Below, one piece after another: positions 20,825 to 37,876 of a stretch of 64,000 nucleotides of DNA (positions are counted from its first letter, which is position 1; every line of letters begins with the position of its first letter). The position numbers and the translations under genes are program-made. Location of the stretch: NCBI GenBank assembly GCA_937889545.1, contig CALAOT010000073.1, forward strand, positions 56,002-120,001, written 5' to 3'. Origin of the DNA: an uncultured Opitutaceae bacterium (GTDB taxonomy: Bacteria; Verrucomicrobiota; Verrucomicrobiia; Opitutales; Opitutaceae). The notes under the pieces are model-generated. The model was not told where the DNA came from and ran no database searches. It saw only the letters and a program-made list of their open reading frames with translations.

Positions 20825-20851
20825 AAATCGCTCAAATCGCTCAATATCGCT
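20825..20851. repeat. tandem 9-bp direct repeat (AAATCGCTC x2 plus degenerate AATATCGCT) in the GH116-DeoR spacer
   Basis: Read directly from the sequence: aaatcgctc at 20825-33, aaatcgctc at 20834-42 and aatatcgct at 20843-51. It is preceded by the overlapping palindromes GCAATTGC/ATTGCAAT at 20809-20819. It lies 49-75 nt upstream of the DeoR ATG. Confidence 0.5.
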
Positions 20852-23435
20852 ACCCGGCGGCCTTCTGGGCCTCGGTGTACCTCAGCTCCTTAACCTCTAT
20901 CCTGCCCACGACAACCTTCAGGAACGGCTTGCCGTCCGCCACCCCCACCGTGCCGAAGCCCGTGGCCGTGGAGAGGAAGCTGCGGAAGTCGCCCCGCAGC
21001 GCGGGCTGCAGGTGCAGCACGCCGTCCACCGCGTCGTAGCGTGCGCCGCTTAGCGCCTGGAGCAGCCCGTACGAGGCCATGGCGCGCGCGTACCAGTGGC
21101 CCCATTCGTACTCGTCGAACGGGTTGCGCGCCCGGCCGTCGTACCGGGCGCGACAGGCGCGGACGATCTCCAGGCCCTCTCCGACGAGCCCCATCAGGAT
21201 CATGTGCGAGGCCGCCTGGTATTCGATGCCGGTCCACACCTCGTTGGAATAGACGAAGGGCAGGGAGGGCATGTTGCCCAGCGGCCACGAGCACAGGAGG
21301 AGTCCTCCCTCGTGGCCGTTCGCGTAGGTCGCGCGCTGGGGATTCGCATGGCCCGCGAGGTCGCGCTTGAAGTTGTGCCGGTGGACGGCCTTCAGGTGGC
21401 TGCGCACCTTTTCGGGATCGAGCACCTGGCCGACGCCGCAGGCGAGCGCGAGCCATGATCCGAGGACCCCGTCCGAAAGGCAGCCGGCCCCGTATTGGTA
21501 TTTCGGGCCCTCCCTCTCGAGGAGCTCGGCCGCCTCCTTCGAGTAGTACTCCCCGTAGAACTTCCCGTCCACCGCGACCTTGGCCCTCAGGTTCTTCCAC
21601 TCCACCCTCTGGAAGTAGTACTCTCCGTTGAAAAGCTCCCCGTTGATCCGGGCCGCCCCGCGGGCAAGCAGGTCCTCGTAAAGCGCGACGTCCTCGCCCA
21701 GCGCACGCCCCATGGCGGCGGCCGCCTTCAGGGCTCCGGCGTAGAAACTCGATATCATGCCGTTTGGGCCCCAGAACTGGATGTCGTAGGTGTTGTGCTG
21801 CGGCTCCTCCGGCCATCCCCTGTGCTCGGGGTCCCAGGTGCCGATGCAATAGTCCAGGCTCGCTCGAATCCTTGGCCAGAGCCCGCGCAGCCAGGCCGTG
21901 TCGCCGCTTATCCGCCACTCGCGGTGGGCCTTCATGATGCCGCCGAGCTGGCCGTCCGCCGCGGCGTAGAAGTCGTGCGCCGAGGCCTGGATCGGCAGGG
22001 CGACCCGGAAATTCTGGTGGCCGTGCTCGTCCTGCCCGACCGAGAACTCGGTCTCGCGCAGGGTCCGCTCGAGCGACGGGAACAGGTGCGCGATCGACTG
22101 GGCGTAGTTCCAGACGTGGGTGCAGGTCCCGGGGCCCTGCGCGTTGTCCTCGTCGCAGCCCTCCCATCCCCACAGGCGCCCGTCGGCCTGGCGCAGCACC
22201 GTCGAAGATTTCAGGATGCTCAGGTTGGCGGCGGCGGCCTCGACGGCCTCGGCCGGAAGGGAGGAGTCGAAGAAGCAGTCGGAGAATCGCTCCGCCTTGC
22301 GGCGCAGGTCCATGTAGTGGTCGCGCCAGTAGGCCGCGAGCTCGTCGATGCCTGCGAATCGGCTGGCATACCACGGCTGGTAGTAGTCGGACGGGGCCCC
22401 GGCGTCGCCCAGCGGGGGGACTATGTCGCGCAACCGGGTCCTTGGGGCGTACCAGGCGATCCGCAGCCGGATCGTCTTGATAGCCCCCGGAACGAAATGG
22501 AACGGAACGAACAGCGATGCGCCCGTCGGCAGCCTGCCTTCGGCCGGGGCCGGGCGGTCGTAGGCCGCGCCCTGCTCGACGTCGCGCCAGGCCATTGTCT
22601 GCGGATCGAACCAGTTGCCGCGAAACCAGGCGAGGTTGACCTTGGCCGCCGGGTCGTCGGTGGCGAAGGCGCACCATGCCTCCTCCTGCTGCGCCGACGG
22701 CCACGCCGCCCCGTACAGGGTGAAGCCGCCGGGGGTGCCGCGGATGGCCCGCGCGGGCTCCGGCCCGCTCTGCCACTCATTCATGGCCGCCGGCACGAAA
22801 TTGCGCGCGTGGAACGAGAACACGGCGTCCAATTCCTCGTCGCCGGCGTTCGTGAACGTGTACTCGAGGCCCGCGACCGGCAGGCTCGAATTGTCGGCGT
22901 CGCCGGGCTCGAACGGGCTCCACCCGGTGATGCGGGCCGTGACGGGCACCGCCGGATCCGCGAGCTCGACGCGCGCGAAGGGAAAGTGCGCGCGGAACGT
23001 CGCCCGGTCGAAGCGCGGAAGCCCCAGACCCAGCGGCCCGCTGCCGGTCGCGGCATGCCTGCGTTCAAACAGCTTCCACTTCGGCACGGGGCCCTCGACC
23101 ACGCGGGCGATCTTCGCCGGGCCGCCGATCGAGATGGCCGCAAACAATCCCGGTTGGTTCTGGAGCACGGGCCGGTCGCGTATCGAGACATTCGTGAGGC
23201 CTCCGGGGCCTTCCAGGCACATCATTCCCGCGCCAAAGCCGCCCATGGGGAAGGAGATCTGGTCTAGCTGGTCGCCGGTGAACGCGGTGTCTGGCCCTCT
23301 CGGGGCCGGGGGCGCGGACGGCGCGGGCCCCGGAACATCTGCGGCCCGGGACAGGGAGGCGGCGGCTGCGATTGCCCCGAGGGTGCCCACGGAGCTTCGG
23401 ACGAATTCGCGGCGGGCTATGAGTCTTTCGGGCAT
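20850..23435 (-). CDS. glycoside hydrolase family 116 (GBA2-type beta-glucosidase) with a Tat signal
   Basis: The ATG at 23435 is preceded by AAGGAG. The N-terminus is MPERLIARREFVRSSVGTLGAIAAAASLSRA (twin-arginine). FPMGGFGAGMMCLEG and NYAQSIAHLFPSLERTLRETEF resemble GH116 N-terminal and catalytic-domain signatures. Confidence 0.83.
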   Translation of the reverse strand: MPERLIARREFVRSSVGTLGAIAAAASLSRAADVPGPAPSAPPAPRGPDTAFTGDQLDQISFPMGGFGAGMMCLEGPGGLTNVSIRDRPVLQNQPGLFAAISIGGPAKIARVVEGPVPKWKLFERRHAATGSGPLGLGLPRFDRATFRAHFPFARVELADPAVPVTARITGWSPFEPGDADNSSLPVAGLEYTFTNAGDEELDAVFSFHARNFVPAAMNEWQSGPEPARAIRGTPGGFTLYGAAWPSAQQEEAWCAFATDDPAAKVNLAWFRGNWFDPQTMAWRDVEQGAAYDRPAPAEGRLPTGASLFVPFHFVPGAIKTIRLRIAWYAPRTRLRDIVPPLGDAGAPSDYYQPWYASRFAGIDELAAYWRDHYMDLRRKAERFSDCFFDSSLPAEAVEAAAANLSILKSSTVLRQADGRLWGWEGCDEDNAQGPGTCTHVWNYAQSIAHLFPSLERTLRETEFSVGQDEHGHQNFRVALPIQASAHDFYAAADGQLGGIMKAHREWRISGDTAWLRGLWPRIRASLDYCIGTWDPEHRGWPEEPQHNTYDIQFWGPNGMISSFYAGALKAAAAMGRALGEDVALYEDLLARGAARINGELFNGEYYFQRVEWKNLRAKVAVDGKFYGEYYSKEAAELLEREGPKYQYGAGCLSDGVLGSWLALACGVGQVLDPEKVRSHLKAVHRHNFKRDLAGHANPQRATYANGHEGGLLLCSWPLGNMPSLPFVYSNEVWTGIEYQAASHMILMGLVGEGLEIVRACRARYDGRARNPFDEYEWGHWYARAMASYGLLQALSGARYDAVDGVLHLQPALRGDFRSFLSTATGFGTVGVADGKPFLKVVVGRIEVKELRYTEAQKAAG

Positions 23436-23712
23436 GGCATTATTCTCCTTGGGCGGTCGCGCCGCTGCCGCGGGATTCCGGCAGGGCAGGGGATGTCTTC
23501 GGCTGCGGCCCGACCCCGCACCCATCCGGGGCAGGACGCGGGTGTTTCGGACTATTCACGGGGCCCACTATCTGCTCTTTGAATCCGGCAGCCAAGCCAA
23601 AGAACGCCGGGCAGGCCTCCGCCCCGCGGGCTCATGTGCGGCGCCGCGTCCAAATGGGCACAAATCCCGGCCCATGGAGACGTTCTTGAGGCGGGCCCGG
23701 CCGGACATCTCC

Positions 23713-23798: not shown

Positions 23799-25055
23799 TT
23801 AGGCGACTTCAGTCACAAGTTCGGGATGAAGCAGCTTGTTAACTGCCTCGAGAAGGGCTTCGACCTTGAAGGGCTTGAAGAGAAAGGCTCCGTTGAAACG
23901 GTGCGTCTTGGAGTCGCCACCCCCGCTGGACAACCCGCTCATGGCGAGGATCTTCACCGTGGGATTCAGATGCTGAACGATGTTGGCGAGGACGGAGCCG
24001 TCGAGGTTTGGCATGCTCATGTCCGTTACGACCAGGCTGATCTCGCTGCTGCGGGCGGCAAAGAGCGCCACGGCCTCGGAGCCGTCCCCGGCCATGAGCA
24101 CGCGGAAGCCGTGGCGCGAGAGGATGGCCCCCGTGATGTCGCGGATCTGGGCCTCGTCGTCGACAATCAGGATGAGCTCACCGTTGCCGCGGGCCGCGCT
24201 CGGCCGGACCGGGTCGAGTTGGTCGCCCTTGGCGGGTATCTCGGCGGCGGGCAGGTACACCCGGAACGTGGTGCCCCGGCCGGGTTGGGTCTTCAGGCTG
24301 ATGAAGCCCCGGTGATGCTCCACGATGGCGCGCACGGTCGAAAGGCCGAGCCCGGTGCCCTTGTTTGGGTCCTTGGTCGTGAAGAATGGCTCCCAAATGT
24401 GCGCGAGCGCCTCGGGAGGGATTCCCATGCCGGTATCCTCGACGTGGAGGACGACCCAGGCGCCAGCCATCGCGCCGTCAATCTTCTTTGCGGCTCGCTC
24501 GTCGAGCAGGCAGTTCTCGGCCCTGAGGCTGAGCACGCCTCCGGAGGGCATCGCGTCGCGGGCGTTGACGCAGAGGTTGAGGAGAACCTGGTGAATCTGC
24601 GTCGGGTTTCCCATGACGGACCAGAGGTCGGCCGCAACGTCGCATTCCAGGCGTATGTTCTTGGGGAAGGTCTCGCCGATGACGCCCGTGGTCTCCTTGA
24701 GGAGGGGCTTCACCTCGACGAGCTGGTGGCCGCCGCCCACGCCCTGGGTGAAACTGAGGATCTGGCGCACCAATTCGACGCCCCGCTCGGCGCTCTTCTC
24801 AAGGGAGGAAATGATGCGCAGGTCATCCGGATTGGTCGCGTGCTCGCGGAGCACGGGAGCAGCCAGGATGATGGGGGCCAGGACGTTGTTGAGGTCGTGG
24901 GCGATCCCGGAGGCCAGCATGCCGATGCTTTCCAGCCGCTGCGCCCGGAGAAACTGCTCGTCGAGGCGCCTCTTCGCGGCGACCTCAGGCCCCGCATCCG
25001 GGCGGGCCTTGGTTCGGTCGGAATCGTTGCAGATCAGGGTGGCGCTCATTTCCAT
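23799..25055 (-). CDS. cytoplasmic hybrid histidine kinase (HisKA-HATPase-REC) without a recognisable sensor domain
   Basis: The track ORF runs to 25121. I prefer the ATG at 25055 (MEMSATL). It has the H-box FLRAQRLESIGMLASGIAHDLNNVLAPI, the G-box GTGLGLSTVRAIVEHHRGFISL and the REC domain ELILIVDDEAQIRD...LVVTDMSMPNLDG. Confidence 0.87.
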   Translation of the reverse strand: MEMSATLICNDSDRTKARPDAGPEVAAKRRLDEQFLRAQRLESIGMLASGIAHDLNNVLAPIILAAPVLREHATNPDDLRIISSLEKSAERGVELVRQILSFTQGVGGGHQLVEVKPLLKETTGVIGETFPKNIRLECDVAADLWSVMGNPTQIHQVLLNLCVNARDAMPSGGVLSLRAENCLLDERAAKKIDGAMAGAWVVLHVEDTGMGIPPEALAHIWEPFFTTKDPNKGTGLGLSTVRAIVEHHRGFISLKTQPGRGTTFRVYLPAAEIPAKGDQLDPVRPSAARGNGELILIVDDEAQIRDITGAILSRHGFRVLMAGDGSEAVALFAARSSEISLVVTDMSMPNLDGSVLANIVQHLNPTVKILAMSGLSSGGGDSKTHRFNGAFLFKPFKVEALLEAVNKLLHPELVTEVA

Positions 25056-25230
25056 GGCAGGGAGCTTGCCCCGGTTGAAGCGCCGAGGGGACGCCCGGCA
25101 TCCCCAGAATCGGCCGCGCAAAAGCCATGGGCGTGAGGAGCTTCCCCATCGAAGCGCCCACCCAGAGGTCCTTTAGGGAGGCCGAGTTCTTCCATTTCAG
25201 AGCGCAACCTAGTGGCACTGCTGTGGGTAT

Positions 25231-25258
25231 TCTACGACGATTTCTACGTCTTTTTACG
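25231..25258. promoter_or_regulatory. three phased direct repeats T(C/T)TACG in the divergent kinase/LuxR-regulator promoter region
   Basis: TCTACG is at 25231-36, TCTACG at 25243-48 and TTTACG at 25253-58. The segment is locally AT-rich and ends 85 nt upstream of the GTG at 25343. Confidence 0.35.
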
Positions 25259-25342
25259 TAATCATGAGCCTTTCCCTTGGGCGACAGGTATTTGATGTGA
25301 GCGAGCTTGAGCTCGGTCGGCCAAGCAGTTTACAATGGCGCC

Positions 25343-26005
25343 GTGAAAATTGTAATCGTCGAAGACCACCTGATGATTCGCGATGTCGTGCGGAAGGTCT
25401 GCAGCTCCGAATTTGGCTATACCGTCGTCGGCGAGACGGATTCGGGCGTTCAGGCGGTGGAGATGATTCTGAAGCACAAGCCGGACGCCGTGGTCCTGGA
25501 CCTGTCGCTTCCCGACATGGACGGCTTCAACGTGGCGGACCGCGTGCTCAAGGCCATACCGAGCCTGCGGATCCTGATGCTGTCGTCGCACTGCGACGAC
25601 TACACCTTGTTCCGCGTGGAGAAGTCGGGCGTGCACGGCTTTATCGACAAGAACTCCAACACGATAGAGACCCTGCGGGACGCCCTTTCGGCGATCGCCG
25701 CCGGGCGCATCTATTTCTCGCAGGCGTTCCAGGCGGCCCGGATAGCCCGGCGGTCCGATCCGCGCTCCTTCATCAAGGTGCTGTCGGACTGGGAGCGGGC
25801 GATCCTCTCGCTCATCGGCCAGGGCCTCAATGACGACGAAATCGGCGAGCGCCTCAACCTTTCGCCACGCACGGTCCAGACCCACCGCAGCAACATCCTG
25901 CGCAAGCTCGACCTAAAGGGGACCCCCAAGCTGATCGCCTTCGCCGTCGAGCACGGCTTCACGCAGGTCCAGTCGAAGAGCGGATCGATTCCAGTTTATA
26001 CCTGA
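25343..26005 (+). CDS. NarL/FixJ (LuxR-type HTH) response regulator
   Basis: The track ORF starts at a TTG at 25307. I prefer the GTG at 25343 ([16 protein letters not shown]). It has the REC domain ([12 protein letters not shown]) and the C-terminal Lux[47 protein letters not shown]. Confidence 0.9.
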
Positions 26006-29000
26006 ACGCGGCGAATTCGCGCTCAAAGTCGTCGAAGAGCTGCTGGAGCTTGTCGGGATGGACCGTGGCGGCGCTGTTCTGGAGCTCGAGCGCCTTGCGG
26101 CTCAGCCGCTCGTATTTCACCACGCTGCAGTGCGACAGGAGCCGGTGCGCTATGCGGTGGATCTCCTCGCGCTCGCCCGTGGCGACGATCTTGCGGGCGC
26201 TTTCGCGGTCGCTCTCAAACGCGGCCAGGAACCGGTCGATCTGGCTGTTGAGGCCCTCCAGGGTCTCGTTGCCGAGGAAGCGCAGCATCTCCAGGTCGAT
26301 CTCCGTGGGCTGCTCCAGGGTGATCTTCTGGGAGCGGACCTCGACCGAGGCGGCGGTGCGCATGGGGCCCCCCAGGTCGCGCAACGCGTCCGCAATCTTC
26401 GCCGGGGTGATCGGCTTGGAGATGAACGCATCCATGCCGGCCTGGAGGCAGGCCTCCCTGTTGAAGTCGGCGGAATAGGCGGTGGTGGCGATGATGATGG
26501 TGCGCTGCGTGGATGGCTCGACCGCGCGGTAGCGCGACGCGACCTCCGTGCCGATGAGCCCGGGCAGGCTCCAGTCGAGGAACGCGACGTCGTAGTGGGT
26601 GGCCTTCAGTCGCTCCAGGGCGGCGAGCCCGTCGTTCACGACGTCCGACTGGATGTCGAGCTTGCGCAGCATGGCCTGCATGGCGATGACGTTGTATTCG
26701 ATGTCCTCGACTATCAGCGCGCGAAGCGGCGCTGAGCGGCGGGTGACGGGCGCCTCGGTCGTGCCTGCATCGCGCATGGTGACGAACGGGATCTCCGCCC
26801 AGAAGCAGGAACCCTCGCCGGGCTTGGATTCGACGCCGACCCGTCCCCCCATCTTGCCCGCGAGAAGCTTACAGACGGCGAGGCCGAGCCCCGTGCCTCG
26901 GATGTTGCCGGTCCGGGCCGACTCGAGCCGGGTGAACTTGGTGAAGAGGGTGGCGATCTCCGCCTCGGTCATGCCGGCGCCCTGGTCGCGAACGAAGAAC
27001 CGCACCCGGCCGTGGAAGCCGGGGGAGGCGCCGACCTCGATCGGCTTTCCCGCCCCGAACTTGACAGCGTTGGTGAGGAAGTTGAGCACGATCTGCTGCA
27101 CGCGGGCCGAGTCGCCCACGAGATGCTCCGGCACCCCGGGCGCGATTGAAATGGTGATGCCGGTCCCGTCGGCGTGCGCGTTCATGGTGACCATCGAGAC
27201 GCACTGCTCGAGGAGTACGCGAAGGGAGAACGGCGCGGAGCGCAGCTCCATCTTTCCCGCCTCGATCTTCGAGAAGTCGAGCACGTCGTCGACCAGGGTC
27301 GCCAGCAGGGTGGCACAGCTGTTTATGGAATCCGCCAGGTAGCGCTGGCGCTTGTCGAGCACCGTCTCCTCGAAGGCGAGCGCGAGGCCGAGTATGCCCG
27401 AGATAGGATTGCGTATCTCGTGGCTCATGTTGGCCAGGAACTCGGACTTTGCCTCGTTGGCCTTCTCGAGTTGCTCCGTCTTCTTCCGGACGAGCGCCTC
27501 CAGGCGGACATTCTGCCGGCGCAGGAACGCGAGGCGCCACTGGAAGGCGCCAAAAAAGGCCGCGACCACCAGCAGTCCGAAGCCGACGAGGGCGGGGACG
27601 GTCCTGTACCAGGGGGGCAGGACCGTGAACCTCCAGACCGTGGCCGGGCTCGCAAGGCCGGCGTCGTTGATCACGCGCGCGGCGAACTCGTACCTGCCGA
27701 TCTGGAGCCGGACAAGGTCGAGGTGATTGCTGTTCGTGGGCGCGGACCACTCGCTGCCGCCTCCGGAAAGCATGGTCTGGAAGCGGACGGATTCGCGCCG
27801 GCCAAACTCCGCCGCGGAAAAATCGAAGCTGACGGAATTCTTGGCGGCAGGGATCCTCGCATCCGCCGCCACGCTCGCGCGGAGGAGCGGCGCGCGCGGA
27901 TTGCCGACCGCCTCGAGCTGGCCGGGGGCGAGACGCAGCAGCCCCTCCGTGCCCCCTAGCCAGACGATGCCGCGGGAATCGACGAAGAGAGATTCGACTT
28001 CGCCTACCTGCGCCAAACCCGGGACGGCGAATGGCTCCCAGGAAGCCTCGCTACCGGCCCTGACCGACAATCGGCCTAGGATCGGGATTCTGGGGCCATC
28101 GGTGAAGGGGCCGTCGAACGCCACCCATACTGCGCCCGAGGATTCGCGATTGGAAATCGCGGCAGCTGGCGTCTTTGGAGCATTCTTAATGAGGACGGGT
28201 GCCTTCAGCGCCAACGGATACAGCTCCACCCCCTTGCCGGTAAATACCGCGATTGCATCGTTGATGCGGGCGACCGCCCCGCGCCCGGTGCCGGGCAGGC
28301 CATCGGTCGGCGTGACGCGAATTGGAGCCGTGGAAACGCCGGCGCCCTGGGGTATTTGGAACGCGCCGCGGGAGACGGTGCCGATCCAGATGTTTCCGTC
28401 TCCGTCCTCGGCCAGGGTCTCGGGCTTGTCGGGCAGATGCGCCAGCGCGTTTGCCTCCATTTCTCCTCCGGCAGCTGGGGAGAGCCGCTCGATGTCGAAG
28501 CCGTCGGCCATAAGAAAGCTGCTGGGACTCGCCAGGGATCGGCGGACAAGGAACACGTTCTTTTTTGAGGCGAAAATCTGGGTTGCCCGGCCTGCCTGAA
28601 TCCGATCGACCCGCCCGATGCCGGATGCGAAAATCGAGCCGTCGGGTTCGGACTCAAGGTCGGCATAGCGGGCTGTCAGGTCGGGGAGCGCTGCGAAACG
28701 CGCCGTTCCATCATTGCCTATGGGAAGGCCGAACACGCCCTCTTCGGTGGCCACGAGGATTTGGGATCCGGTCTGGGTCAAGCTGATGCAATGTTTACCG
28801 GTCAATCCTTGCCGCGCGTCGAAAAACGAAACGCCGGATTCGAGCGCGATTCGCGTAATGCCGTCAGCTGAGGTGGCCCACAGCGCGCCGTCGCGGGTAA
28901 CGAAGAGGGAAAACACACCGCGCGACGGCAAACCGTCGTCTGTCGAGATGACCCGTTTCAACGCTCCCGTGGGACCGACAATTGCAATGCCGCCGTTCAG

Positions 29001-29813
29001 CGTGCCGAGGCAAAGGTCTCCGCGCGGAAGCCGACAGGCGCAAAGGAGCACGTTCTTGCGGATGAACTCTTTGGCATCCGGAGCGAACTCGGAGATCTTC
29101 CCGTCGATGAGGCGGAACAGCCCGTTTGTGGTTCCGAGCAGCCAGCCTCCCTCGGCCTTTTCCATCCAGATGACCCCGGCGCTTCTCAGGATTTCCGGCG
29201 AAATGAACTCATGCAGTCCGTCCGCGTCGAGCGTCCGAACCCCCGAATCGGTGCGGCTTATAAAGATCCTTCCGTCCGCCTGCATCGCCTGCACTCGTGC
29301 CGTTCCCGGCGATCCATGGAGCCTGAAGGCCTTTCCGTCCCAGACCAGAACGGCACTTAAGGTTACGAATACGGCTCCTTCGCCGTTGGAAAACACCTTC
29401 CAGACCTCGCCCAAAGCCCTCGCCGCTTCCGGCAGGCTTTCCACAAGTGAATGATAGGCCGAGAGCCCCTGCTCAGTTCGATCAAAATAGCCGATCTCGT
29501 TCACGGCTCCAACCCAGAGACGCCCGTGAGGGCCGAGTGCCAAGGCGCGGACCGCGTAGCTGCCGGGAACGGGGTACCTGTTCCAGCGCTCTCCATCAAA
29601 GGTGAATACCTCGTCGCAGCCAAAATAGAGTATGCCGTTATCATCCTGCGTTGTCGCCCAGGTAAATCCCCCAATCCCCGTGTCCCGCGCTGTGTATCCC
29701 GTCACGATCAGGCGACCCTCCTCGCTTCGGACCGCGGGCGCCAGCGCCACGGCCAACCAGGCTAGGCATAGGACGGGTTTGAATTTTCGCACAGTTTTTA
29801 CGACTGGAAGCAA
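25959..29813 (-). CDS. large hybrid sensor kinase: periplasmic two-component-regulator beta-propeller repeats + Y_Y_Y, TM, HisKA, HATPase, REC, Hpt
   Basis: 1284 aa. It has a signal/TM N-terminus followed by about 700 aa of repeat-rich propeller-like sequence. The TM segment is [19 protein letters not shown], the H-box is [19 protein letters not shown] and the G-box is [18 protein letters not shown]. The REC domain is [12 protein letters not shown]...[10 protein letters not shown] and the Hpt helix is [15 protein letters not shown]. The start codon (TTG at 29813) is uncertain. Confidence 0.9.
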
Positions 29814-29955
29814 TCTGCAGGATAGCCTTCCCTAGCCCTTCCCTTGCAAGCAGAAGCGGCGCCTGACTACTGAAAAAAGCGTAATAAAGAACGTGAAAAT
29901 AGGCGAATTATTAATTCGGTTTCAGGGGCGGGGCGTAAGTAGTTTTGCGTACGAC

Positions 29956-30159
29956 ATGAAGACATTCAATCGCATGGCATTGGGCGTAGCATCCAGCGTG
30001 CTCTTATCAGCAGGCTTTTCCCGGGCGGCCCAACGGCTTGACCCGTTGACTAAGTTGGTTGGACGTTCGAGTTCTGGGGACAGCAGTGGCGAGGCGTCGG
30101 CGTGCTCCTGCGCATGTCAATGCACGATGCCCTGCATGCACGAAGCCAAGTCGGTCTAA
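29956..30159 (+). CDS. candidate RiPP precursor peptide (67 aa): signal-peptide-like leader plus Cys-rich C-terminal core
   Basis: MKTFNRMALGVASSVLLSAGFSRAAQRLDPLTKLVGRSSSGDSSGEASACSCACQCTMPCMHEAKSV. The track ORF begins at a GTG at 29893; the ATG at 29956 is preferred. This is the only ORF in an otherwise non-coding 386-nt gap. It is on the same strand as the YcaO-like gene and ends 40 nt upstream of it. No clear SD sequence is present. Confidence 0.45.
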   Translation: MKTFNRMALGVASSVLLSAGFSRAAQRLDPLTKLVGRSSSGDSSGEASACSCACQCTMPCMHEAKSV

Positions 30160-30199
30160 GAGGCCACGCCGAGAGAGAACTTCGAGAGGCGCCGTCGCT

Positions 30200-31093
30200 A
30201 TGCTTAGCGTCGCTGGATATCGCTATCGAAACGTACTGGAGTCCGAGGGGGGACCCGTTGCGCGGATATCCCTTCGCGAGTTCCCCGTATACGGCTGTCC
30301 GATGTATCAGGCGAATGCCTGGCTGTCGGACAGCCTGGTGTCGCACCAGAGGAATTTTGCCCTCTACAGCGATGCTGACGGCACGGGCGCCTCCGCCGTG
30401 CCGATGGTCGCGCGCCACATGGCGATTTCCGAGGCGATGGAGCGTTGGGCTTTCCGGGTGAAGGTGCGGGCTCCTGACCGGGAGCTGTACGGATTCGATA
30501 TCGACGAGTCGTCCAACGGGATGGCGGCGTTTCCGGGGCTCTTTCATACCGAGGCCCGGAAGCGGGCTCTTCTAGAGGCGGTGGAGCGCGCCAGCGTGAT
30601 CGCCTGGTGGGAGGGCGTGCTGGACGGCGAGGTTCGCAGCACCGACTGGCCGGGCATAAGCGCCCTCGTCCTGCCGAGTCCGATAGGGCTGGGCCTGACC
30701 GTCATCGCGTTTCGAGAGGTGAGGCCGGGCTGCTTCGCCTACGGCCACGGGGCGGCCAAGGACTTCTTCGGCGCGGCCGAGCGTTCGGTCATGGAGCTGG
30801 CGCGCAACGAATACGTGCTCGACCTGCGGCGCGTGTCCCAGGGACTTGCGGCTGAGAAGACGGCGTCGGACCTGTTTGAGCGGCGCTGCCTGTTCTTCTC
30901 GTCCTCGGAGGGGCACGCGATGTTCCAGGAGAGGATCCATCGCAAGATGACAGGGCCGCGCTTCCAGTCGGAGATCATCTGCGACACGGAGATTCCGGGG
31001 CCGTGGTCGGAGTATGCCTCGGTGTGGCGCGTCCTTATACGGCCTGCGACCACCGAGTTTCTGGCCAACACCGAGAGGTATTTCTTCTGGTGA
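30200..31093 (+). CDS. minimal YcaO-domain protein (about 297 aa)
   Basis: Track ORF 30059..31093; I prefer the ATG at 30200, with GAGAGG 10 nt upstream. Three YcaO-type motifs were recognised by eye: DADGTGASAVPMVARHMAISEAMERWAF, ESSNGMAAFPGLFHTEARKRALLEAVERASVIAWWEG and AYGHGAAKDFFGAAERSVMELARNEY. No HMM was run. Confidence 0.72.
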   Translation: MLSVAGYRYRNVLESEGGPVARISLREFPVYGCPMYQANAWLSDSLVSHQRNFALYSDADGTGASAVPMVARHMAISEAMERWAFRVKVRAPDRELYGFDIDESSNGMAAFPGLFHTEARKRALLEAVERASVIAWWEGVLDGEVRSTDWPGISALVLPSPIGLGLTVIAFREVRPGCFAYGHGAAKDFFGAAERSVMELARNEYVLDLRRVSQGLAAEKTASDLFERRCLFFSSSEGHAMFQERIHRKMTGPRFQSEIICDTEIPGPWSEYASVWRVLIRPATTEFLANTERYFFW

Positions 31094-31100
31094 GTGCAGG

Positions 31101-31331: not shown

Positions 31332-31556
31332 GTGAAACTCGCCAAGAAGACGACCCAATCGAAGGCCCCCTCCCTGGAGGGGGACCTGCTGCGGCTGGAA
31401 CTGCGGATCGCAAGGCGGGCGGACAGGCTTTGGCGGAAGGCGGGATGCTGCAGCGGCAGGGACCTGATCCACTGGCTGCAGGCGGAGGGCGAGGTGCTCG
31501 AGAGGCATTTCGCCACCGGGCGCCCCATGGGGGCGATGCTGCCCGCGGAGCAATGA
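31332..31556 (+). CDS. DUF2934-family small protein
   Basis: 74 aa with a GTG start. LRLELRIARRADRLWRKAGCCSGRDLIHWLQAEGEVLE fits the DUF2934 pattern (RAYElW...G..G.DledWLqAE). Confidence 0.65.
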   Translation: MKLAKKTTQSKAPSLEGDLLRLELRIARRADRLWRKAGCCSGRDLIHWLQAEGEVLERHFATGRPMGAMLPAEQ

Positions 31557-31718
31557 GGCCCCTCGGGGTCGCTGGTGCCTTGCCTTCGGCGCGCCGGCGC
31601 AGGATAAACACGCGCGGCGGCGAACCGCCCGGGATTGAACGGATCTCGCGCCGGCGCGAAAGGGATGCGGCCCAACCTCCATCAGCTTCCTGTATCCGGA
31701 AACTCCTCCGGCTTCCGC

Positions 31719-34076
31719 ATGCCGGGAGCGGGACGCCCGCGCTGCAACGAGTGGATCCGGCTCGCGCCGGCGCTCATAGCCGCGATGGGCCTGGCCCATG
31801 GCAAAGCCCGGGCGGACCCGGGCGGCCCGGTCGTCGTGGGCGGCGATCTTGTCCGGGTGGAGGCCCAGGTTCGGGAGGGACGGCTGGTCGAGCGCTACCT
31901 GGCCCGCCGCGACGGGGAATGGATCCTGGTCGCCGCAGGTGAGGAAGGCGGCACGATGGGGCCGACCGCAGCGATCTCCGCCGACCATGAGGTCGAGGCG
32001 GGCGCGCTCGCAAGGATAGGGAAGGACGGAGCGGACCTGGTCGAGGAGTTCACGGCGGGCGGGCTGCGCGTGCTCCGGAGGGTGGCCGTCGACGGCGGTG
32101 GGCCGTGGGTCCATGTGACCACGCGGCTCAATCCGGGCCGCCCGGCGAAGCTCCATGCGTTTGTCGACCGGTTCAGATTCCCGCTGGCGCCGGACTGGTC
32201 CTTCGCCCCCTCGGTCCGCGGATTCGTCCCCGACGCGCAGTACAAGGCCCCGCTGATCCTTGTGCAGGCGGGTTGGGTCGCCTTCGGGATCGTCCCGGAC
32301 GTGGCCGGGCTCGACCGCCCGGCGTTGAAGCGGTGCAACCACGCCCTGGACCTGGACGTGCCGGGCGGCCCCGTCCTGAGCGTGGGCTTCGTGCCCGCCC
32401 GCCTCGCATACCATTCCGTCTATGCGCCGGACGAGGCGCGGTCGTGGACGGCGGAGGGCCCTCTCGGGAACGCCTACTACCTTCTGGTCACGGCCGCGGC
32501 CCGGCCCGGCGAGGCCTACCGCGAGGCCGTGCGCCTGCACTGGGCGCGCTTTGGCCGGGCGGGCCAGGCCCTGGCGGCCGCCCAGCAGGCGGCCACGGAC
32601 CCGCATTACCTAGGGCTGGCGCTCTGGGACGACTGGCGCAAGGCGGCCTGGCAGGTGCAGTCGCGGGCGGAATGGCTCACGGTGCCGCTTCCCGGCGGCT
32701 CGACGGGCGGCGGCGTGGCTACGCGCCGCTGGGGGCCGGGTCCCTCGGTGTACCTTTCGGCCTGGTTCAACACCCTGCGGACCTCGTATGGCATGGCCCT
32801 GTACGCGCGCCGGACGGGCGACGGGGAGCTGCTCGGGATGGCGAGGGAAACCGTGGACCTGGCGCTCCAGGCGCAGGGCAGCGGCGGGGCCTTCAAGTGC
32901 ATCGCGGTGCCGGGCGGCCCGGGCGGGGCGACCTTGTGGGCGGCCGGCGACGGAAGCGGGGACAGCACCAAGGAGGGTTTCCTGGGCTACGACATGAGCT
33001 GGACGGCCTACTGGCTCCTCAAGTGGAGGGAGGCCGGGCTGCCGGGCGGCGAGGCCGTCCTGCCGCGCTGCCGCGCCCTGGCCCGGTTCTTCGCGGACAG
33101 GCAGCGCGACGATGGGATGCTGCCCACGCGGTTCCGCGAGGACGGGACCGTGATCGGGGAGCTGTCGGAGACCGTCAAGGCCGAGACCGGCCCGGTCGCG
33201 CTCTTCCTCCTGGAGCTCCACTCCCAGGATCCGGATCCGAGGTGGCTCGCCGCGGCCCTCAAGGGGCTGGATTTCCTCGGGGAAAGCGTGGCGAAGACGC
33301 GCCAGTGGTATGACTTCGAGACGTTCTGGAGCTGCAGCCCGCGCAGGGCCGCCCTCGATCCGCGGACGCGGCAGTGGCCGGCCAACGACCTGGCCCTCGG
33401 GCAGGCAGTGTCCGCGTACCTGGCGGCGTTCCGCGCAACCCGCGACCGCGCCTATCTCGAGCGGGGCGAGCGGCTGCTCGACTACCTGCTGCTCTACCAG
33501 CAGTGCTGGACCAATCCCGTGCTGGAGAACCTGACGGGGCCGGAGATGCTCCTGGGCGGCTTCACGACCCAGAATTCCGATGCCGAATGGTCGGACGCCC
33601 GGCAGAGCCAGGTCGGGAACACCCTGCTGGACTACTACCGTGCGACGGGAAAGGCCGAGTACCTCCAACGGGGGATCGCCGCCCTTCGCGCGCAGTTTCC
33701 GGTGTCCCCGTCCGAGAACTGGGCCCACGAGGGCTACGGCCGCAAGGCCGGCGTGAGCAGCTTCCACTGGGGGACGGGCAGCGGGATGGCCGGGATCGAG
33801 ATGGAGGAGGAGTTCCTGCGCGACGGAGTCGTGGACGTGGCCTCGGGGACCGGGGTGGGGGTCAACGGGCTTGACGTGACGGAATGCTCCGTTTGGGCCG
33901 GCGAGATCCGGCTGCGGGTGGCGAGCCCCTTTGCCTGGCGGCGGGAAGCCGTCCTCGTATTCCGCCGCGCGGAGCCTTCACAGTCCTATCGCGTGGTGGT
34001 GAACGGCGCCGATCTGGGCGTCCGGCTCGGTGCCGACCTGGAAAAGGGCCTTCCCGTGACACCATGCGCGGAATGA
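31719..34076 (+). CDS. large uncharacterised, probably exported protein (helical-repeat / possible alpha-alpha-barrel region)
   Basis: Track ORF 31635..34076 (813 aa, TTG start). The ATG at 31719 gives MPGAGRPRCNEWIRLAPALIAAMGLAHGKARA, which is signal-like. I recognise no family motif. Codon usage and composition look like real coding sequence. Confidence 0.6.
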   Translation: MPGAGRPRCNEWIRLAPALIAAMGLAHGKARADPGGPVVVGGDLVRVEAQVREGRLVERYLARRDGEWILVAAGEEGGTMGPTAAISADHEVEAGALARIGKDGADLVEEFTAGGLRVLRRVAVDGGGPWVHVTTRLNPGRPAKLHAFVDRFRFPLAPDWSFAPSVRGFVPDAQYKAPLILVQAGWVAFGIVPDVAGLDRPALKRCNHALDLDVPGGPVLSVGFVPARLAYHSVYAPDEARSWTAEGPLGNAYYLLVTAAARPGEAYREAVRLHWARFGRAGQALAAAQQAATDPHYLGLALWDDWRKAAWQVQSRAEWLTVPLPGGSTGGGVATRRWGPGPSVYLSAWFNTLRTSYGMALYARRTGDGELLGMARETVDLALQAQGSGGAFKCIAVPGGPGGATLWAAGDGSGDSTKEGFLGYDMSWTAYWLLKWREAGLPGGEAVLPRCRALARFFADRQRDDGMLPTRFREDGTVIGELSETVKAETGPVALFLLELHSQDPDPRWLAAALKGLDFLGESVAKTRQWYDFETFWSCSPRRAALDPRTRQWPANDLALGQAVSAYLAAFRATRDRAYLERGERLLDYLLLYQQCWTNPVLENLTGPEMLLGGFTTQNSDAEWSDARQSQVGNTLLDYYRATGKAEYLQRGIAALRAQFPVSPSENWAHEGYGRKAGVSSFHWGTGSGMAGIEMEEEFLRDGVVDVASGTGVGVNGLDVTECSVWAGEIRLRVASPFAWRREAVLVFRRAEPSQSYRVVVNGADLGVRLGADLEKGLPVTPCAE

Positions 34077-34189: not shown

Positions 34190-37100
34190 ATGAACCCAAG
34201 ACTCCCGATTCCACCTCCCGTTCCCCGCCGCATGCCGATTTCCCGGGTCGCGAATGCAGACGCATCCGATGCCGTCGGCTTCTCGGCCCGCCTGCGGGCC
34301 GCCCGGATGCTGCTCCCGGCGCTCCTGTGCGCCGCCTCGGCAACCGCGGCCGGCGACTTTACGCGCGGAGTCGGCGTCTACCCGGGCGATCCCGCTGCGT
34401 TCCAAGGGCCGACGATGGTCCCGGACGCCGCGGCCTACCGCAACCTCGCGCTGCACCGTCCGGCGACTGCGTCGAGCAACTACGACTACAGCCTGACAGC
34501 CCAGCTAATCACCGACGGGATCATCGACGGCCGGATGCCCCGCTGGCTCGTGGTGTCCTCGAGCGCGGAGGGCATCCTGCCCCGGCACGAGCGGGAGCAC
34601 CTGGTAGACAACTACGCGAGCACGGCAGTCAGCCTTCCGGCCGAGGGAGGATGGGTGCAGATCGAGCAGGCCGGGCGGCTCGACGTGCCCGATGTCGACC
34701 GCATCGAGGTGGTCGCCATGCCTCGCACGCAGGACGCGAAGCCGCAGCGGTGGACGTGCGTGGTCCGTGCCTCCGACGACGCCAGCGCCTGGAGGGAGCT
34801 GGGGCGCGCAGGCGGGGAGGAGAGCCTGGCTTCAAAGGCCTTCTGGATTCCGAAGGTCGTCAAGGCGGCGTTTGACGTGCCGGCGAACGGGAAGGCCCGT
34901 TTCTACCGCGTCCAGATCGACGCGCCCTCCGTGACCGGCTGGAGGGTCGCAAGCGTTGACACCTTCGCCCGGGGGCAGCGGGTGAACCTGGGCGGACCCC
35001 ACGATTTCACGAGCGCCTGGAAGAGCGCGGGCAACGCGGCCGAGTGGGTCCAGGTCGACCTGGGCGCGGTCTGCACCTTCGACCGCGTCGCCCTGCACTG
35101 GATCGAGCGCGCCGCCGCGGGCGCGATCGAGGCCTCCGACGACGGGGCGGGCTGGCGCTCTCTCGCGCCGCTCGTGGCCGCCGCCGACGACTACCGGCTG
35201 GCGAAGCCGGCGAGCGCCCGCTACGTGCGGGTGCGGATGGAGCGTCCCGTCGCGGCCGACGGCTACATCTTGAGCGAGATGGAGGTGTTCGGGCGCGGCG
35301 GCCTCGTGCCCCGTGCCCAGCCCGCCGCGGCTCCGCGTCCCGGCGAGCGCCAGGATCTCGTGCGCGGATCGTGGCGCATCCAGCGTGATTCGCTGGTGAC
35401 GCTGGGCGGCGAGGAGCTCTCCCGGCCCGGCGCGGACTGCCGCGGCTGGCTGCCGGCCACCGTGCCGGGATCGGTGCTGGTGAGCTACTGGAACGCGGGC
35501 GCGCTGCCGGATCCGAACTACGGCGACAACCAGCTGCAGATCTCGGATTCCTTCTTCTACTCGGATTTCTGGTATCGTGACGAGTTCGCGATCGCCGCCC
35601 CGCCTCCCGGCCGGAGGGTCTGGCTCAACTTCGACGGCATCAACTGGAAGGCCGACGTCTACCTCAACGGAACCCGCGTGGGCCGCATCGACGGCGCCTT
35701 CACGCGGGCGAGCTTCGACGTGACGGGCCTCGCCCGCCCCGGGGCGGCCAACGCCCTGGCGGTGCGGATTCACAAGCCGGACACGCCCGGTTCCGTTCGC
35801 GAAAAGACCGCCGACGAGACGGGAAGCAACGGCGGCGCGCTGGGCGCGGACAACCCGACCTTCCACGCCACCGCGGGCTGGGACTGGATCCCCAGCATCC
35901 GCGGCCGCAACATCGGCATCTGGTCCGACGTCTATGTGACCACGACGGGGCCGGTCGTCCTCGAGCACCCCTTTGTCTCCGCCAAACTGCCGCTGCCCGA
36001 CACGGGCAGCGCCGATGTGACGGTGGAGGTGGCGCTGCGCAACACCGAATCCAAACCCGTGAGCGGCGTGCTGAGCGGCCAGTTCGGGGACGTGCATTTC
36101 GAGCAACGCGTCGACGTGCCCGCGGCGGCATCCACCGTCGTGAGGCTCGACCCGTCGACGGTGGCCGGATTGCACCTGATGCACCCCAGGCTTTGGTGGC
36201 CCGCCGGCTACGGAGAGCCGAACCTCTACGACGTCCGCCTTGACTTCGACGCCGCCGGGGTCCGGTCCGATTCGAAGTCATTCCGCGCGGGGGTGAGGCA
36301 GTTCACGTATGCCGAGGAGGGCGGCGCCCTGAAGCTATTCGTCAACGGCCGCAGGTTCATCGGCCGCGGCGGCAACTGGGGGTTCTCGGAATCGAACCTT
36401 CTGTACCGCGACCGTGAATACGAGGCCGCAGTGCGCTACCACCGCGAGATGGGCTTCACGATGATCCGGAACTGGGTCGGCCAGGTCGGCGACGACGCCT
36501 TCTTCGAGGCCTGCGACCGCAACGGCGTCGTGGTCTGGCAGGATTTCTGGCTCGCCAACCCGCTGGATGGTCCGGACCCGGCCGACAACGCCATGTTTCT
36601 GCAGAACGCCGCCGACTTCATCGACCGCATCCGCAACCATCCCTCGGTGGGCCTCTACTGCGGCCGCAACGAGGGGGACCCGCCGCCGGTTCTGAACGCG
36701 GGCCTGCAGAAGCTCGTTGCGTCGCTTCACCCCGGCATCCGCTACATCGCGAACTCGGCCTTCGGGCTCGTCAGCGGGGGAGGGCCCTACCACCTGATGC
36801 CGATCAACTATTACTTTGACCAGCGCGCCACGACCAAGCTCCACAGCGAGCTCGGCATGCCGAACATCGTCACCCTGGACAGTCTGCGGCAGATGATGCC
36901 GGTGGCGGACCAGTGGCCGCAGGGGGCGGTCTGGGGCCTGCACGACTTCACGACCCGCGGCGCTCAGGGGGGAGGCGAGCTGCGAGCGACAATCGAAAAG
37001 TCCTACGGCGGCGCCGCGGACGCCGCGGAGTGGGTGGAACTCGCGCAGTTCACCAATTACGACGGCCATCGCGCGATGTTCGAGGCGCAGAGCAAGCACC

Positions 37101-37876
37101 GCATGGGGGTTCTCATGTGGATGAGCCACCCGTGCTGGCCCTCGTTTGTGTGGCAGACCTACGACTACTACCTCGAGCCGACCGCCGGCTACTTCGGGGC
37201 AAAGAAGGGCAGCGAACCCCTGCACGTCCAGTGGAACCCGCTGGACGGCACGGTCGAAGTCGTGAACTACAGCGGCGGCCACCGCCCCAGCCTCGAGGTC
37301 AGTGCCGCCATCCTGAACATGGACGGCTCGGCGCAGTGGGAGCAGTCCGCGACGATCGACAGCGCCGAGGACACGGTCATGTCGCCCATCACGCTCGCCT
37401 TCCCCGGGGCCGGGCTGTCGCCCATCCACTTTGTGCGCCTGAGGCTCACCGAGGGCGGCAAGACAGTGTCGGAAAACACCTACCTGCGCAGTCTCACGAC
37501 CTACAAAGTCCCCGGATTCTCGTTCGGGCCCTTCCACATCCCCGACTTCCCGGCGTTTGATTTTCACGCGATCCGCGCGCTGCCGAAGGCGCCCGTGCGC
37601 AGCGTCACCGCGGCCGAGCGCCACGGCAGCCAATGGGTCTTGTCGACGGAGCTCGAAAACGCCTCAAAGACCCCGGCGCTGATGGTCCGCCTGAAGGCCG
37701 TGCGCGAGAAGAGCGGCGACCGCATCCTGCCGGCCCTGTACGACGACAACTACATCACGCTGATGCCCGGCGAAAGGCGCCGCCTGCGAACCGAGTTGGA
37801 GGAGGCAGACACGCGGGGCGAACGCCCTCGGATCGTGGTCGAGGGCTTCAATCTCGGCCGAGAAGGCGGGCGGTAG
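34190..37876 (+). CDS. glycoside hydrolase family 2 with N-terminal F5/8 type C (discoidin) module(s)
   Basis: 1228 aa. A signal-like segment, RAARMLLPALLCAASATAAG, follows the N-terminus. Discoidin-like segments are NLALHRPATASSNYDYSLTAQLITDG and WVQVDLGAVCTFDRVALHW...ARYVRVRMERP...ILSEMEVFG. The GH2 core is WLPATVPGSVLVSYWNAGALPDPNYGDN...GFTMIRNWVGQVGDDAFFEACDRNGVVVWQDFWLANP. The exact start is uncertain (34190, 34232 or 34307). Confidence 0.84.
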   Translation: MNPRLPIPPPVPRRMPISRVANADASDAVGFSARLRAARMLLPALLCAASATAAGDFTRGVGVYPGDPAAFQGPTMVPDAAAYRNLALHRPATASSNYDYSLTAQLITDGIIDGRMPRWLVVSSSAEGILPRHEREHLVDNYASTAVSLPAEGGWVQIEQAGRLDVPDVDRIEVVAMPRTQDAKPQRWTCVVRASDDASAWRELGRAGGEESLASKAFWIPKVVKAAFDVPANGKARFYRVQIDAPSVTGWRVASVDTFARGQRVNLGGPHDFTSAWKSAGNAAEWVQVDLGAVCTFDRVALHWIERAAAGAIEASDDGAGWRSLAPLVAAADDYRLAKPASARYVRVRMERPVAADGYILSEMEVFGRGGLVPRAQPAAAPRPGERQDLVRGSWRIQRDSLVTLGGEELSRPGADCRGWLPATVPGSVLVSYWNAGALPDPNYGDNQLQISDSFFYSDFWYRDEFAIAAPPPGRRVWLNFDGINWKADVYLNGTRVGRIDGAFTRASFDVTGLARPGAANALAVRIHKPDTPGSVREKTADETGSNGGALGADNPTFHATAGWDWIPSIRGRNIGIWSDVYVTTTGPVVLEHPFVSAKLPLPDTGSADVTVEVALRNTESKPVSGVLSGQFGDVHFEQRVDVPAAASTVVRLDPSTVAGLHLMHPRLWWPAGYGEPNLYDVRLDFDAAGVRSDSKSFRAGVRQFTYAEEGGALKLFVNGRRFIGRGGNWGFSESNLLYRDREYEAAVRYHREMGFTMIRNWVGQVGDDAFFEACDRNGVVVWQDFWLANPLDGPDPADNAMFLQNAADFIDRIRNHPSVGLYCGRNEGDPPPVLNAGLQKLVASLHPGIRYIANSAFGLVSGGGPYHLMPINYYFDQRATTKLHSELGMPNIVTLDSLRQMMPVADQWPQGAVWGLHDFTTRGAQGGGELRATIEKSYGGAADAAEWVELAQFTNYDGHRAMFEAQSKHRMGVLMWMSHPCWPSFVWQTYDYYLEPTAGYFGAKKGSEPLHVQWNPLDGTVEVVNYSGGHRPSLEVSAAILNMDGSAQWEQSATIDSAEDTVMSPITLAFPGAGLSPIHFVRLRLTEGGKTVSENTYLRSLTTYKVPGFSFGPFHIPDFPAFDFHAIRALPKAPVRSVTAAERHGSQWVLSTELENASKTPALMVRLKAVREKSGDRILPALYDDNYITLMPGERRRLRTELEEADTRGERPRIVVEGFNLGREGGR

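Follow-up and report, generated by a model that had tools for sequence, protein, structure and literature searches.

Signalling through modified peptides that are read by a cognate kinase is a hallmark of the Firmicutes. Loci with this logic, such as agr (AgrBDCA) and Bacillus ComQXPA, hold the genes for a precursor, a modifying enzyme, a sensor kinase and a regulator together. Among YcaO enzymes, the BotC/BotCD-type proteins of bottromycin biosynthesis stand alone, with no RRE, E1-like or TfuA partner, and perform one heterocyclisation per peptide; amidine formation by a YcaO is likewise known from bottromycin. The bufferins and oxazolins are copper-binding RiPPs (peptides made on the ribosome and altered after translation) that are modified by MNIO enzymes, carry an N-terminal Sec signal and modified Cys residues, have no dedicated exporter and yield a periplasmic product (PMC11626156, PMC12452194). 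Here we describe a locus in a 64,000-nucleotide stretch of DNA from an uncultured Opitutaceae bacterium (contig CALAOT010000073.1, positions 56,002 to 120,001; hereafter the window), in which a small precursor peptide gene (29956..30159, + strand) is followed by the gene for a minimal stand-alone YcaO of 297 aa (30200..31093, +), and which includes genes for a divergently transcribed hybrid sensor histidine kinase (25959..29813, −) and a NarL/GerE-family response regulator (25307..26005, +). The organization suggests a four-gene signalling module rather than a two-gene antibiotic cluster, and because the kinase encoded beside the peptide and YcaO genes has a sensing domain that appears to evolve in step with the peptide, it suggests an undescribed modified-peptide signalling system. 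A full-text literature search, in which subscription-only papers were not covered, found no description of it.

The YcaO gene starts with an ATG 40 nt past the stop codon of the small open reading frame (ORF) and ends at 31093, and its product, predicted to be cytoplasmic, carries all three motifs that an earlier sequence-only reading of the locus had quoted as YcaO-type. That identification was correct. The protein matches PF02624 at 29.3 bits (E 7e-7), above the gathering score of 25.7, in an alignment limited to residues 102-204, and precomputed PF02624 matches are present in most of its homologues. An AlphaFold2 model built on 64 diverse homologues (predicted local distance difference test 91.5, predicted template modelling score 0.89) has as its sole significant match in the PDB the YcaO McbD, the cyclodehydratase of microcin B17 (6gos_D; Foldseek E 2.7e-6, probability 1.00, template modelling (TM) score 0.54 normalised to the query). 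TIGR03604 (the SagD family) scores 16.9 bits and is well below its cut-off of 219.25, no NCBIfam family reaches its cut-off for the enzyme, and family profiles of 14 and 64 sequences found no YcaO by sequence among solved structures. The YcaO relationship is thus visible only through Pfam and fold comparison, and although very divergent the 297-aa protein is a genuine YcaO.

Three long helices carry the residues S77-E78-x-x-E81-R82, E126-x-x-E129-R130 and E194-R195-x-x-x-E199, and an SSNG turn lies at residues 104-107. When aligned to E. coli YcaO by hhalign, with a low probability that reflects a template of a single sequence, E126/E129/R130 fall on E199/E202/R203, E194/R195/E199 on E285/R286/E290, and SSNG on the SNG at 180-182. 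Residues E78, E81, R82, E126, E129, R130, E199 and R202 are conserved in at least 133 of 140 cluster representatives. They lie on the long helices described as supplying the ATP coordination sphere in McbBCD (PMC6395948), and the TIGR03604 enzymes McbD, BalhD and LynD/PatD share with the window protein the superfamily and fold, the three-helix Glu/Arg ATP-Mg site and the Ser/Thr-x-Gly turn (PMC6395948). The mini-YcaO is predicted to activate backbone amides in an ATP-dependent manner.

The likeness to the TIGR03604 cyclodehydratases extends to an adjacent leader-plus-core substrate with a Cys/Ser/Thr target, except in a remote branch of the family described below, and some cyanobactin precursors are multi-core, as are several here. 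However, the mini-YcaO is shorter by about 100 or more residues, has no linked E1-like/Ocin-ThiF/RRE, dehydrogenase, protease or transporter gene, and would act on a peptide with a signal-peptide-like leader and typically one target rather than a poly-azole substrate. The C-termini also differ. The Pro-rich PxPxP tail of those enzymes, which inserts into the active site, was not found among the 140 representatives, in which the C-terminus is aromatic and conserved to the last residue; the window protein ends ...ERYFFW-COOH and all of the representatives end x-F-[FLY]-[FW]-COOH. It is possible that this aromatic tail has a role analogous to that of the PxPxP tail.

Bottromycin BotC/BotCD YcaOs are partner-free like the mini-YcaO but have no detectable sequence relationship to it, and they act within a large multi-enzyme antibiotic cluster on a precursor with a follower peptide, whereas here there is an N-terminal leader and a two-component system forms the only conserved neighbours. 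With the bufferins the system shares the signal-like leader, but the enzyme families are unrelated (DUF692/MNIO plus DUF2063 there, YcaO here), and bufferin cores are conserved domains whereas the cores here are hypervariable and appear to co-vary with the sensor kinase. We compared 81 related loci (given L numbers) by clustering all ORFs, and also looked at the remote branch (L082-L087). The raw clusters of these high-GC loci included many spurious ones from overlapping frames, and we therefore used a greedy choice of genes and tblastn searches with the window proteins. No E1-like/Ocin-ThiF/RRE partner or FMN dehydrogenase is conserved near the YcaO gene in the 81 loci, although one could still be encoded elsewhere in the genome. 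Neither tfuA or sulfur-transfer genes nor an MNIO (DUF692) or DUF2063 partner are among the conserved neighbours, no TfuA Pfam match occurs among the neighbours scanned, and no dedicated transporter, protease or immunity gene is linked among the conserved neighbours. The view that the locus fits no named RiPP class therefore stands, given the TIGR03604 score and the lack of a conserved E1-like/RRE, TfuA or dehydrogenase gene nearby. The enzyme lies outside the SagD/thiazole/oxazole-modified microcin, TfuA-associated and bufferin classes, and appears to work most like a stand-alone azoline-forming YcaO.

The 67-aa product of the small ORF (MKTFNRMALGVASSVLLSAGFSRAAQRLDPLTKLVGRSSSGDSSGEASACSCACQCTMPCMHEAKSV) consists of a leader, a variable linker, a core (...CTMPCMH) and a short tail. 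The leader spans residues 1 to ~32 and is signal-peptide-like (MKTFNRMALGVASSVLLSAGFSRAAQRLDPLT). A longer frame with a GTG start at 29893 is unsupported, as homologues begin at MK(T/S), and the peptide has no match in Pfam and none in NCBIfam. A first regular expression for the leader was too strict, finding 31 of the 81 loci, and was replaced by a hidden Markov model (HMM), which in 76 of the 81 matches a small ORF that immediately precedes the YcaO gene on its strand (E down to 1e-19). The small ORF is thus more than a chance companion of the enzyme. The gap between the two genes is -7 to 261 nt, mostly 5-45 nt, and the linkage holds down to ~36% enzyme identity and into the remote branch. 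Of the five loci that the HMM misses, the available sequence in four extends less than 170 nt upstream, which leaves L074 as the one true orphan.

Alignment of the precursors gives a leader consensus over the first ~32 residues of MK(T/S)IN+..LG..SSLLL..G(L/F)...A.(K/R)LDP(L/V/M)(T/S), beyond which the peptides are hypervariable except for a core near the C-terminus, usually C-x-x-P-C-x-[F/Y/W]. Tandem and often identical cores, in two to five copies, are present in L007, L022, L026/27, L044, L067, L072 and L075, with five copies of KSSAFSELPCQFS in the L075 precursor, and this repetition points to mature units that are ~11-13 residues long (in L072, up to 21). Conservation of the leader, hypervariability of the core and its repetition in several homologues bear out the proposed role of the ORF as a RiPP precursor, and the precursor and YcaO are very probably a genuine enzyme-substrate pair. 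It is highly improbable that the pairing is coincidental, with a small ORF that is unexpressed or encodes an ordinary secreted peptide and a YcaO whose substrate is something else, a cellular protein for example (as in ribosomal or MCR thioamidation). E. coli-type and methanogen YcaOs do modify proteins rather than adjacent peptides (PMC5589413, PMC13063428), and L074 has the enzyme with neither the small ORF nor the kinase, but the recurrence of the ORF across the family and the leader and core pattern, a RiPP precursor signature, both speak against a coincidence.

The window precursor does contain, as had been pointed out, five Cys residues within 11 positions, four of them at i/i+2 spacing, but the poly-Cys stretch is not a family feature. 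The CSCACQC run is lineage-specific and only the last C-x-x-P-C is kept family-wide, so that one Cys, in a few cases a Ser or Thr, appears to be the common target; a poly-azole formed from the CSCACQC stretch was considered and rejected, as the stretch is not conserved. L064, L066, L077 and L078 have Ser or Thr in place of the second core Cys (CVPSAF, CLPTGF, CVPSI and CLPTV), and L073 and L079 have Ser at the core Cys position (P-S-x-W). Confinement of the position to Cys, Ser and Thr, with six loci swapped, is expected if a side-chain nucleophile is needed, and these are exactly the azoline-competent nucleophiles.

Several individual precursors are unusual. L013 encodes a homologue (5770..5973) with a normal leader and a Cys-less, Arg-rich tail (…RQYVRHAVLLRRRRVVRFE), whose core looks frameshifted or decayed, and L037 has two tandem precursor-like ORFs. 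L044 and L075 (JANYAM010000206 and JANYAM010000101) come from the same Opitutus sp. metagenome-assembled genome, and this one bin appears to hold two complete systems, each with its own kinase; the L044 core, three copies of AFTETVCNF, differs from that of L075.

The kinase gene is divergent from the precursor gene and by its longest ORF encodes 1284 aa. Pfam matches show an N-terminal signal/transmembrane segment, a periplasmic propeller sensor of ~715 aa (Reg_prop), a transmembrane segment, and HisKA, HATPase_c, receiver and Hpt domains. The nearest solved structures to the sensor are the periplasmic sensors of Bacteroides hybrid two-component systems (4a2l, 3v9f and 3va6; E ~1e-10), and the kinase core resembles TorS, BarA, ArcB and LuxQ. 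The regulator gene is convergent with the kinase gene and encodes 232 aa by its longest ORF, although the true start is probably ~12 codons further in; its product, assigned by Pfam, resembles NarL and UvrY. A divergent kinase of ~1,280-1,370 aa and a NarL regulator are present in every locus with enough upstream DNA except L074, the sensors of the homologous kinases align over their full length with that of the window kinase in tblastn searches, and regulator identity ranges from 94% to 36%. In L077 and L078 the regulator gene is relocated to directly downstream of the YcaO gene. The linkage to kinase and regulator holds to 36% YcaO identity, while all other flanking genes vary between loci. 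The two-gene RiPP module that had been proposed is thus real as a pair but is not free-standing, since the unit adds a hybrid kinase, a response regulator and a shared palindromic operator, and the pair is very likely coupled functionally to the two-component system.

The putative operator is a 16-bp palindrome-like sequence, TACTGAAAAAAGCGTA, with the layout TAC-N10-GTA (29868..29883). The kinase and precursor genes are separated by a divergent intergenic region of 142 bp, and the sequence lies within it, 88 nt upstream of the precursor ATG; an alignment of the region shows a conserved block. A second copy, TACGTCTTTTTACGTA, is intergenic and upstream of the regulator gene (25245..25260). The pattern CTACNNNAAAANNCGTA, with at most one mismatch, has two matches in the 64-kb window (29867-29883 and 25245-25261), against 0.03 expected. 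TAC-N10-GTA is found at -84 to -88 (-73 in L022) in 23 of 25 near-clade loci. In other clades the same place is occupied by a perfect TACCGGAATTCCGGTA (L031, L034 and L036) or near-perfect variants of it (L029, L030, L032, L033 and L061), and L041-L075 have CACCTGCATTTAGGTG at the equivalent place. Upstream of the regulator gene, TACGTCTTTTTACGTA or a near-identical sequence is present in 12 near-clade loci with sequence available (L004-L020), and other TAC-N10-GTA sites occur in three more distant loci or the window. We take the TAC-N10-GTA layout to resemble the 7-2-7 sites of the NarL family, and the adjacent NarL-type regulator is likely to bind it. The palindromes common to the upstream regions of the peptide operon and the regulator gene support autoregulation.

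Of all parts of the module, the peptide core and the sensor of the kinase evolve fastest. For pairs of loci with a YcaO distance below 0.25, the mean distances are 0.18 for YcaO, 0.24 for the cytoplasmic part of the kinase, 0.28 for the leader, 0.49 for the sensor and 0.60 for the core. In partial Mantel tests over 63 loci, core and sensor distances are correlated when either the cytoplasmic part of the kinase (r=0.36, p<=5e-4) or YcaO (r=0.32, p<=5e-4) is controlled for, whereas with the sensor controlled for the core is correlated significantly with neither the cytoplasmic part (r=-0.13) nor YcaO (r=-0.06). Individual pairs illustrate the pattern: L004 and L007 have a YcaO distance of 0.05, a sensor distance of 0.39 and different cores, and L046 and L056 have a YcaO distance of 0.19, a sensor distance of 0.18 and nearly identical cores. 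Within the same kinase gene the rate of synonymous substitution (dS, by the Nei-Gojobori method) was compared between the sensor half (27579..29723 in the window) and the core half (25962..27500), and between the equivalent regions in the other loci. In most close pairs dS of the sensor is about twice that of the cytoplasmic half, with YcaO intermediate; for L004/L009 the values are 1.22, which is in the saturated range, and 0.50, and the ratio of non-synonymous to synonymous rates (dN/dS) is ~0.2 and ~0.1. The pattern is reminiscent of pherotype loci and suggests that the region around the junction of sensor and precursor has had a mosaic or recombinant history.

The model that we favour, to which we give roughly an even chance, is that a YcaO-modified and exported signal peptide is sensed by its own two-component system. 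A TAC-N10-GTA promoter, likely the site of the adjacent NarL-type regulator, would drive the precursor-YcaO operon. The cytoplasmic YcaO would recognise the leader without an RRE or E1-like partner and use ATP to activate the amide preceding the core Cys (Pro-Cys in ...CTMPCMH), the product being most likely a thiazoline, rather than an azole because no dehydrogenase is linked. The signal-peptide-like N-terminus would then route the modified peptide through the general Sec pathway, and export of this kind would explain the absence of a linked dedicated transporter or protease. A modified peptide of ~11-13 residues, periplasmic or extracellular, would bind the double-propeller sensor of the divergent hybrid kinase, and a His-Asp-His-Asp phosphorelay would activate the regulator, which would act on its own promoter and on the peptide operon to give autoinduction. 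The step in which the peptide serves as the ligand of the kinase is itself evenly balanced.

A remote branch of homologues with 30-39% identity, on unassigned contigs of lower GC content (L082-L087), has a different arrangement, in which the kinase gene diverges from a small ORF (46-60 aa), a gene for an exported SBP_bac_5 protein with an OppA-type fold (68 bits in L085) and the YcaO gene. The small ORF of L086 matches the leader HMM (E 2e-8; ...LSLGLVKIAGKLDPLARK), and L082 adds a sigma54-dependent regulator and a second kinase. This architecture implies that the link between peptide, mini-YcaO, periplasmic receptor and two-component system is older than the Opitutales arrangement. More broadly we propose, tentatively and with a little less than even confidence, an unrecognised class of peptide pheromone (pherotype) in diderm Opitutales and some unassigned low-GC lineages, defined by a minimal, partner-independent YcaO that puts a backbone modification on a Sec-routed autoinducer, by a propeller kinase or an OppA-like protein plus kinase that reads this autoinducer in the periplasm, and by co-diversifying specificity groups. 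Three further features of the branch were noted: the YcaO gene is translationally coupled to the SBP_bac_5 gene, the cores share a recurring [G/S]-N-[G/K] motif, and the kinases have a periplasmic loop of ~90-100 aa with two Cys residues and a weak GHKL HATPase_c_5 match.

The two-component system could instead merely regulate the peptide, with the propeller kinase sensing a glycan, a metal or envelope stress, and the peptide acting as a bufferin-like periplasmic metal buffer or as an antagonist of competitors. The sensor is indeed most like the glycan-sensing Bacteroides hybrid sensors, glycoside hydrolase genes flank the locus in the window, and plain regulation predicts the linkage and the operator equally well. 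A C-x-x-x-C motif accompanied by Met and His, as in ...CTMPCMH, typifies soft-metal ligands, the window core as a whole is rich in Cys, Met and His, and copper-chelating RiPPs with Sec signals exist (PMC11626156, PMC12452194). Nonetheless, we consider this alternative unlikely: the flanking hydrolase genes vary between loci, a core that is hypervariable bar one Cys is atypical for a conserved chelator, the immunity or export genes usually needed for an antimicrobial role are not linked, the core appears to co-diversify with the sensor domain and not with the rest of the module, and the remote branch has an OppA-like peptide-binding protein in place of the propeller. A main role of the kinase as a regulator of glycan utilisation was also considered and rejected, as the hydrolase neighbours are not conserved. 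The Bacteroides systems (such as BT4663; 4a2l) share the propeller-type periplasmic sensor and a hybrid kinase with a receiver, but they are glycan-sensing with a fused AraC output, whereas here the kinase ends in Hpt, acts with a NarL-type regulator that is encoded separately, and invariably has a peptide-YcaO operon as its partner.

Export of the precursor, on which the favoured signalling model depends, is predicted from the character of the leader. By a heuristic check, 59 of 63 precursors have a positive n-region, the uncharged h-region has a median length of 16 residues, and there are candidate -3/-1 sites; a lipoprotein reading was rejected, there being no canonical lipobox. The same leader could act as an uncleaved signal anchor, such that a YcaO-modified periplasmic tail acts directly on the kinase in the manner of MgrB on PhoQ. 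MgrB has Cys residues in its periplasmic part, and the peptide likewise has Cys in what would be the periplasmic tail. Its hydrophobic N-terminus is far more conserved than ordinary signal peptides, -3/-1 sites are poor in many homologues, and the gene always adjoins that of the kinase. Such a tethered modulator is nevertheless quite improbable, since identical cores in tandem (as many as five, in L075) imply that several short peptides are freed by proteolysis, the soluble or anchored binding protein of the remote branch suits a free ligand, and conservation of the leader is also explained by YcaO recognition.

With a free, exported signal as the preferred reading, the nature of its modification can be considered separately, and an azoline at the conserved Cys has in our view a fifty-fifty chance. 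The same architecture could employ other YcaO chemistry, for example forming a thioamide, an amidine or another ring, or causing cleavage or cyclisation at the residues past the Cys, and the conserved Cys would then serve another role, such as in a disulfide or as a metal ligand. Thioamides and amidines are known products of YcaO enzymes (PMC5589413). The low TIGR03604 score and aromatic C-terminus fit this possibility, as does the lack of a linked partner or dehydrogenase typical of azole synthetases, and remote-branch cores are Gly/Asn-rich with no Cys (GGGNGGGGW, GAGAGNGKYGGA and GSGGGNGSSNGGGG). In the window branch, however, the key position is only ever Cys, Ser or Thr, usually after Pro, and no TfuA or sulfur-transfer gene is linked; a different chemistry is rather unlikely, if less so than the alternatives discussed above.

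Several observations weigh against the signalling model as a whole. The fold match of the enzyme is moderate (TM 0.54), and only one among the solved YcaOs scored significantly. The nearest solved relatives of the sensor bind glycans, not peptides, and glycoside hydrolase genes abound in the window. As a rule, sensor domains in the periplasm evolve more quickly than kinase cores, and the Mantel result is suggestive only, because shared phylogeny can make two fast characters correlate; dS is saturated above 1, the metagenome-assembled genomes compared belong to different species, and the loci are not phylogenetically independent. The operator near the regulator gene is found mainly in the near clade. 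The signal-peptide reading is heuristic; in 13 of 76 homologues polar residues break the hydrophobic stretch of the leader, and placement of the -3/-1 cleavage site is ambiguous. Lastly, the Cys-less cores of the remote branch mean that azoline formation cannot be the chemistry of the whole family.

In its locus logic the module most resembles agr and ComQXPA, as an analogy only. As there, genes for a precursor, a modifying enzyme, a sensor kinase and a regulator are grouped in one locus, the peptide and the sensor, both hypervariable, seem to co-diversify while the rest is conserved, and there is probably autoregulation; the Cys nucleophile of agr autoinducing peptides is occasionally Ser, as here. 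The module parts have no Pfam or NCBIfam match to agr or ComQXPA components (AgrB/AgrC, ComQ/ComP), and a polytopic membrane sensor there contrasts with a periplasmic beta-propeller or OppA-like protein, a predicted YcaO modification and a diderm host here. If the model is correct, an analogous but non-homologous circuit that diversifies in the manner of pherotypes would open cell-cell communication to study in Verrucomicrobiota, an abundant and poorly studied phylum of soil and aquatic habitats, and would assign a non-glycan class of ligand to propeller-type two-component sensors. It would also provide a second, independent Sec-routed RiPP pathway, such routes being known so far mainly for MNIO-modified bufferins and oxazolins. 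The enzyme would be the smallest self-sufficient YcaO, with ~297 residues, no RRE, E1-like or TfuA partner and an aromatic tail, and would offer a compact scaffold for studies of leader recognition and for engineering of backbone heterocycles.

The mini-YcaO family is distinct and compact. It comprises 974 clusters at 90% identity, 1.84 billion representatives contain only 492 clusters at 50% identity with E<=1e-3, and the members listed have lengths of 285-340 aa with few exceptions. Named carriers are Opitutaceae, Lacunisphaera, Oleiharenicola, Coraliomargarita/Thalassobacterium, Puniceicoccaceae and Opitutus terrae, and the Verrucomicrobia carriers come from soil and water. The window itself is closest to an Opitutaceae metagenome-assembled genome (L001, 92% identity), and the cultured Opitutus terrae PB90-1 has a 75%-identical copy (P0076), which makes the hypothesis directly testable. 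L059 (JAWXBZ010000149), labelled Candidatus Eisenbacteria, has a complete type-A locus with a peptide almost identical to those of Lacunisphaera L046, L049 and L056, and this contig is probably Verrucomicrobial and mis-binned, and so not evidence that a second phylum has the system. The orphan L074 (CAYZBG010000064; 41% identity) lies in a different gene context and is the sole homologue with full flanks that lacks the precursor, kinase and regulator genes.

Other features of the window lie around the module. A gene for a soluble hybrid kinase (23802..25121, −; 440 aa with HisKA, HATPase_c and receiver domains and no obvious transmembrane segment) is divergent from the regulator gene, and the second palindrome lies in the intergenic region between the two. 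Linkage of this kinase gene to the module is confined to the near clade (11 loci, L004-L020), and its product is a possible clade-specific relay component. Just past the YcaO stop codon there are two GC-rich hairpins on the + strand, at 31096-31129 and 31138-31181, with arms of 15 and 19 nt and no T-tract, which may mark the end of the operon; a scan for sigma-70 promoter and intrinsic-terminator consensus sequences gave nothing useful and did not call these hairpins, and Rfam has no match around the locus. The 540-nt gap past the YcaO gene contains a 74-aa ORF (31332..31556, +) with a DUF2934 match (37.9 bits) that is outside the conserved module. Further out are flanking genes for glycan degradation, encoding a GH116 protein (20850..23525, −), an 813-aa protein with a weak C5-epimerase-C match (31635..34076, +) and a 1228-aa GH2-like protein with an F5/8 type C domain (34190..37876, +), which are not conserved beside the module in other genomes.

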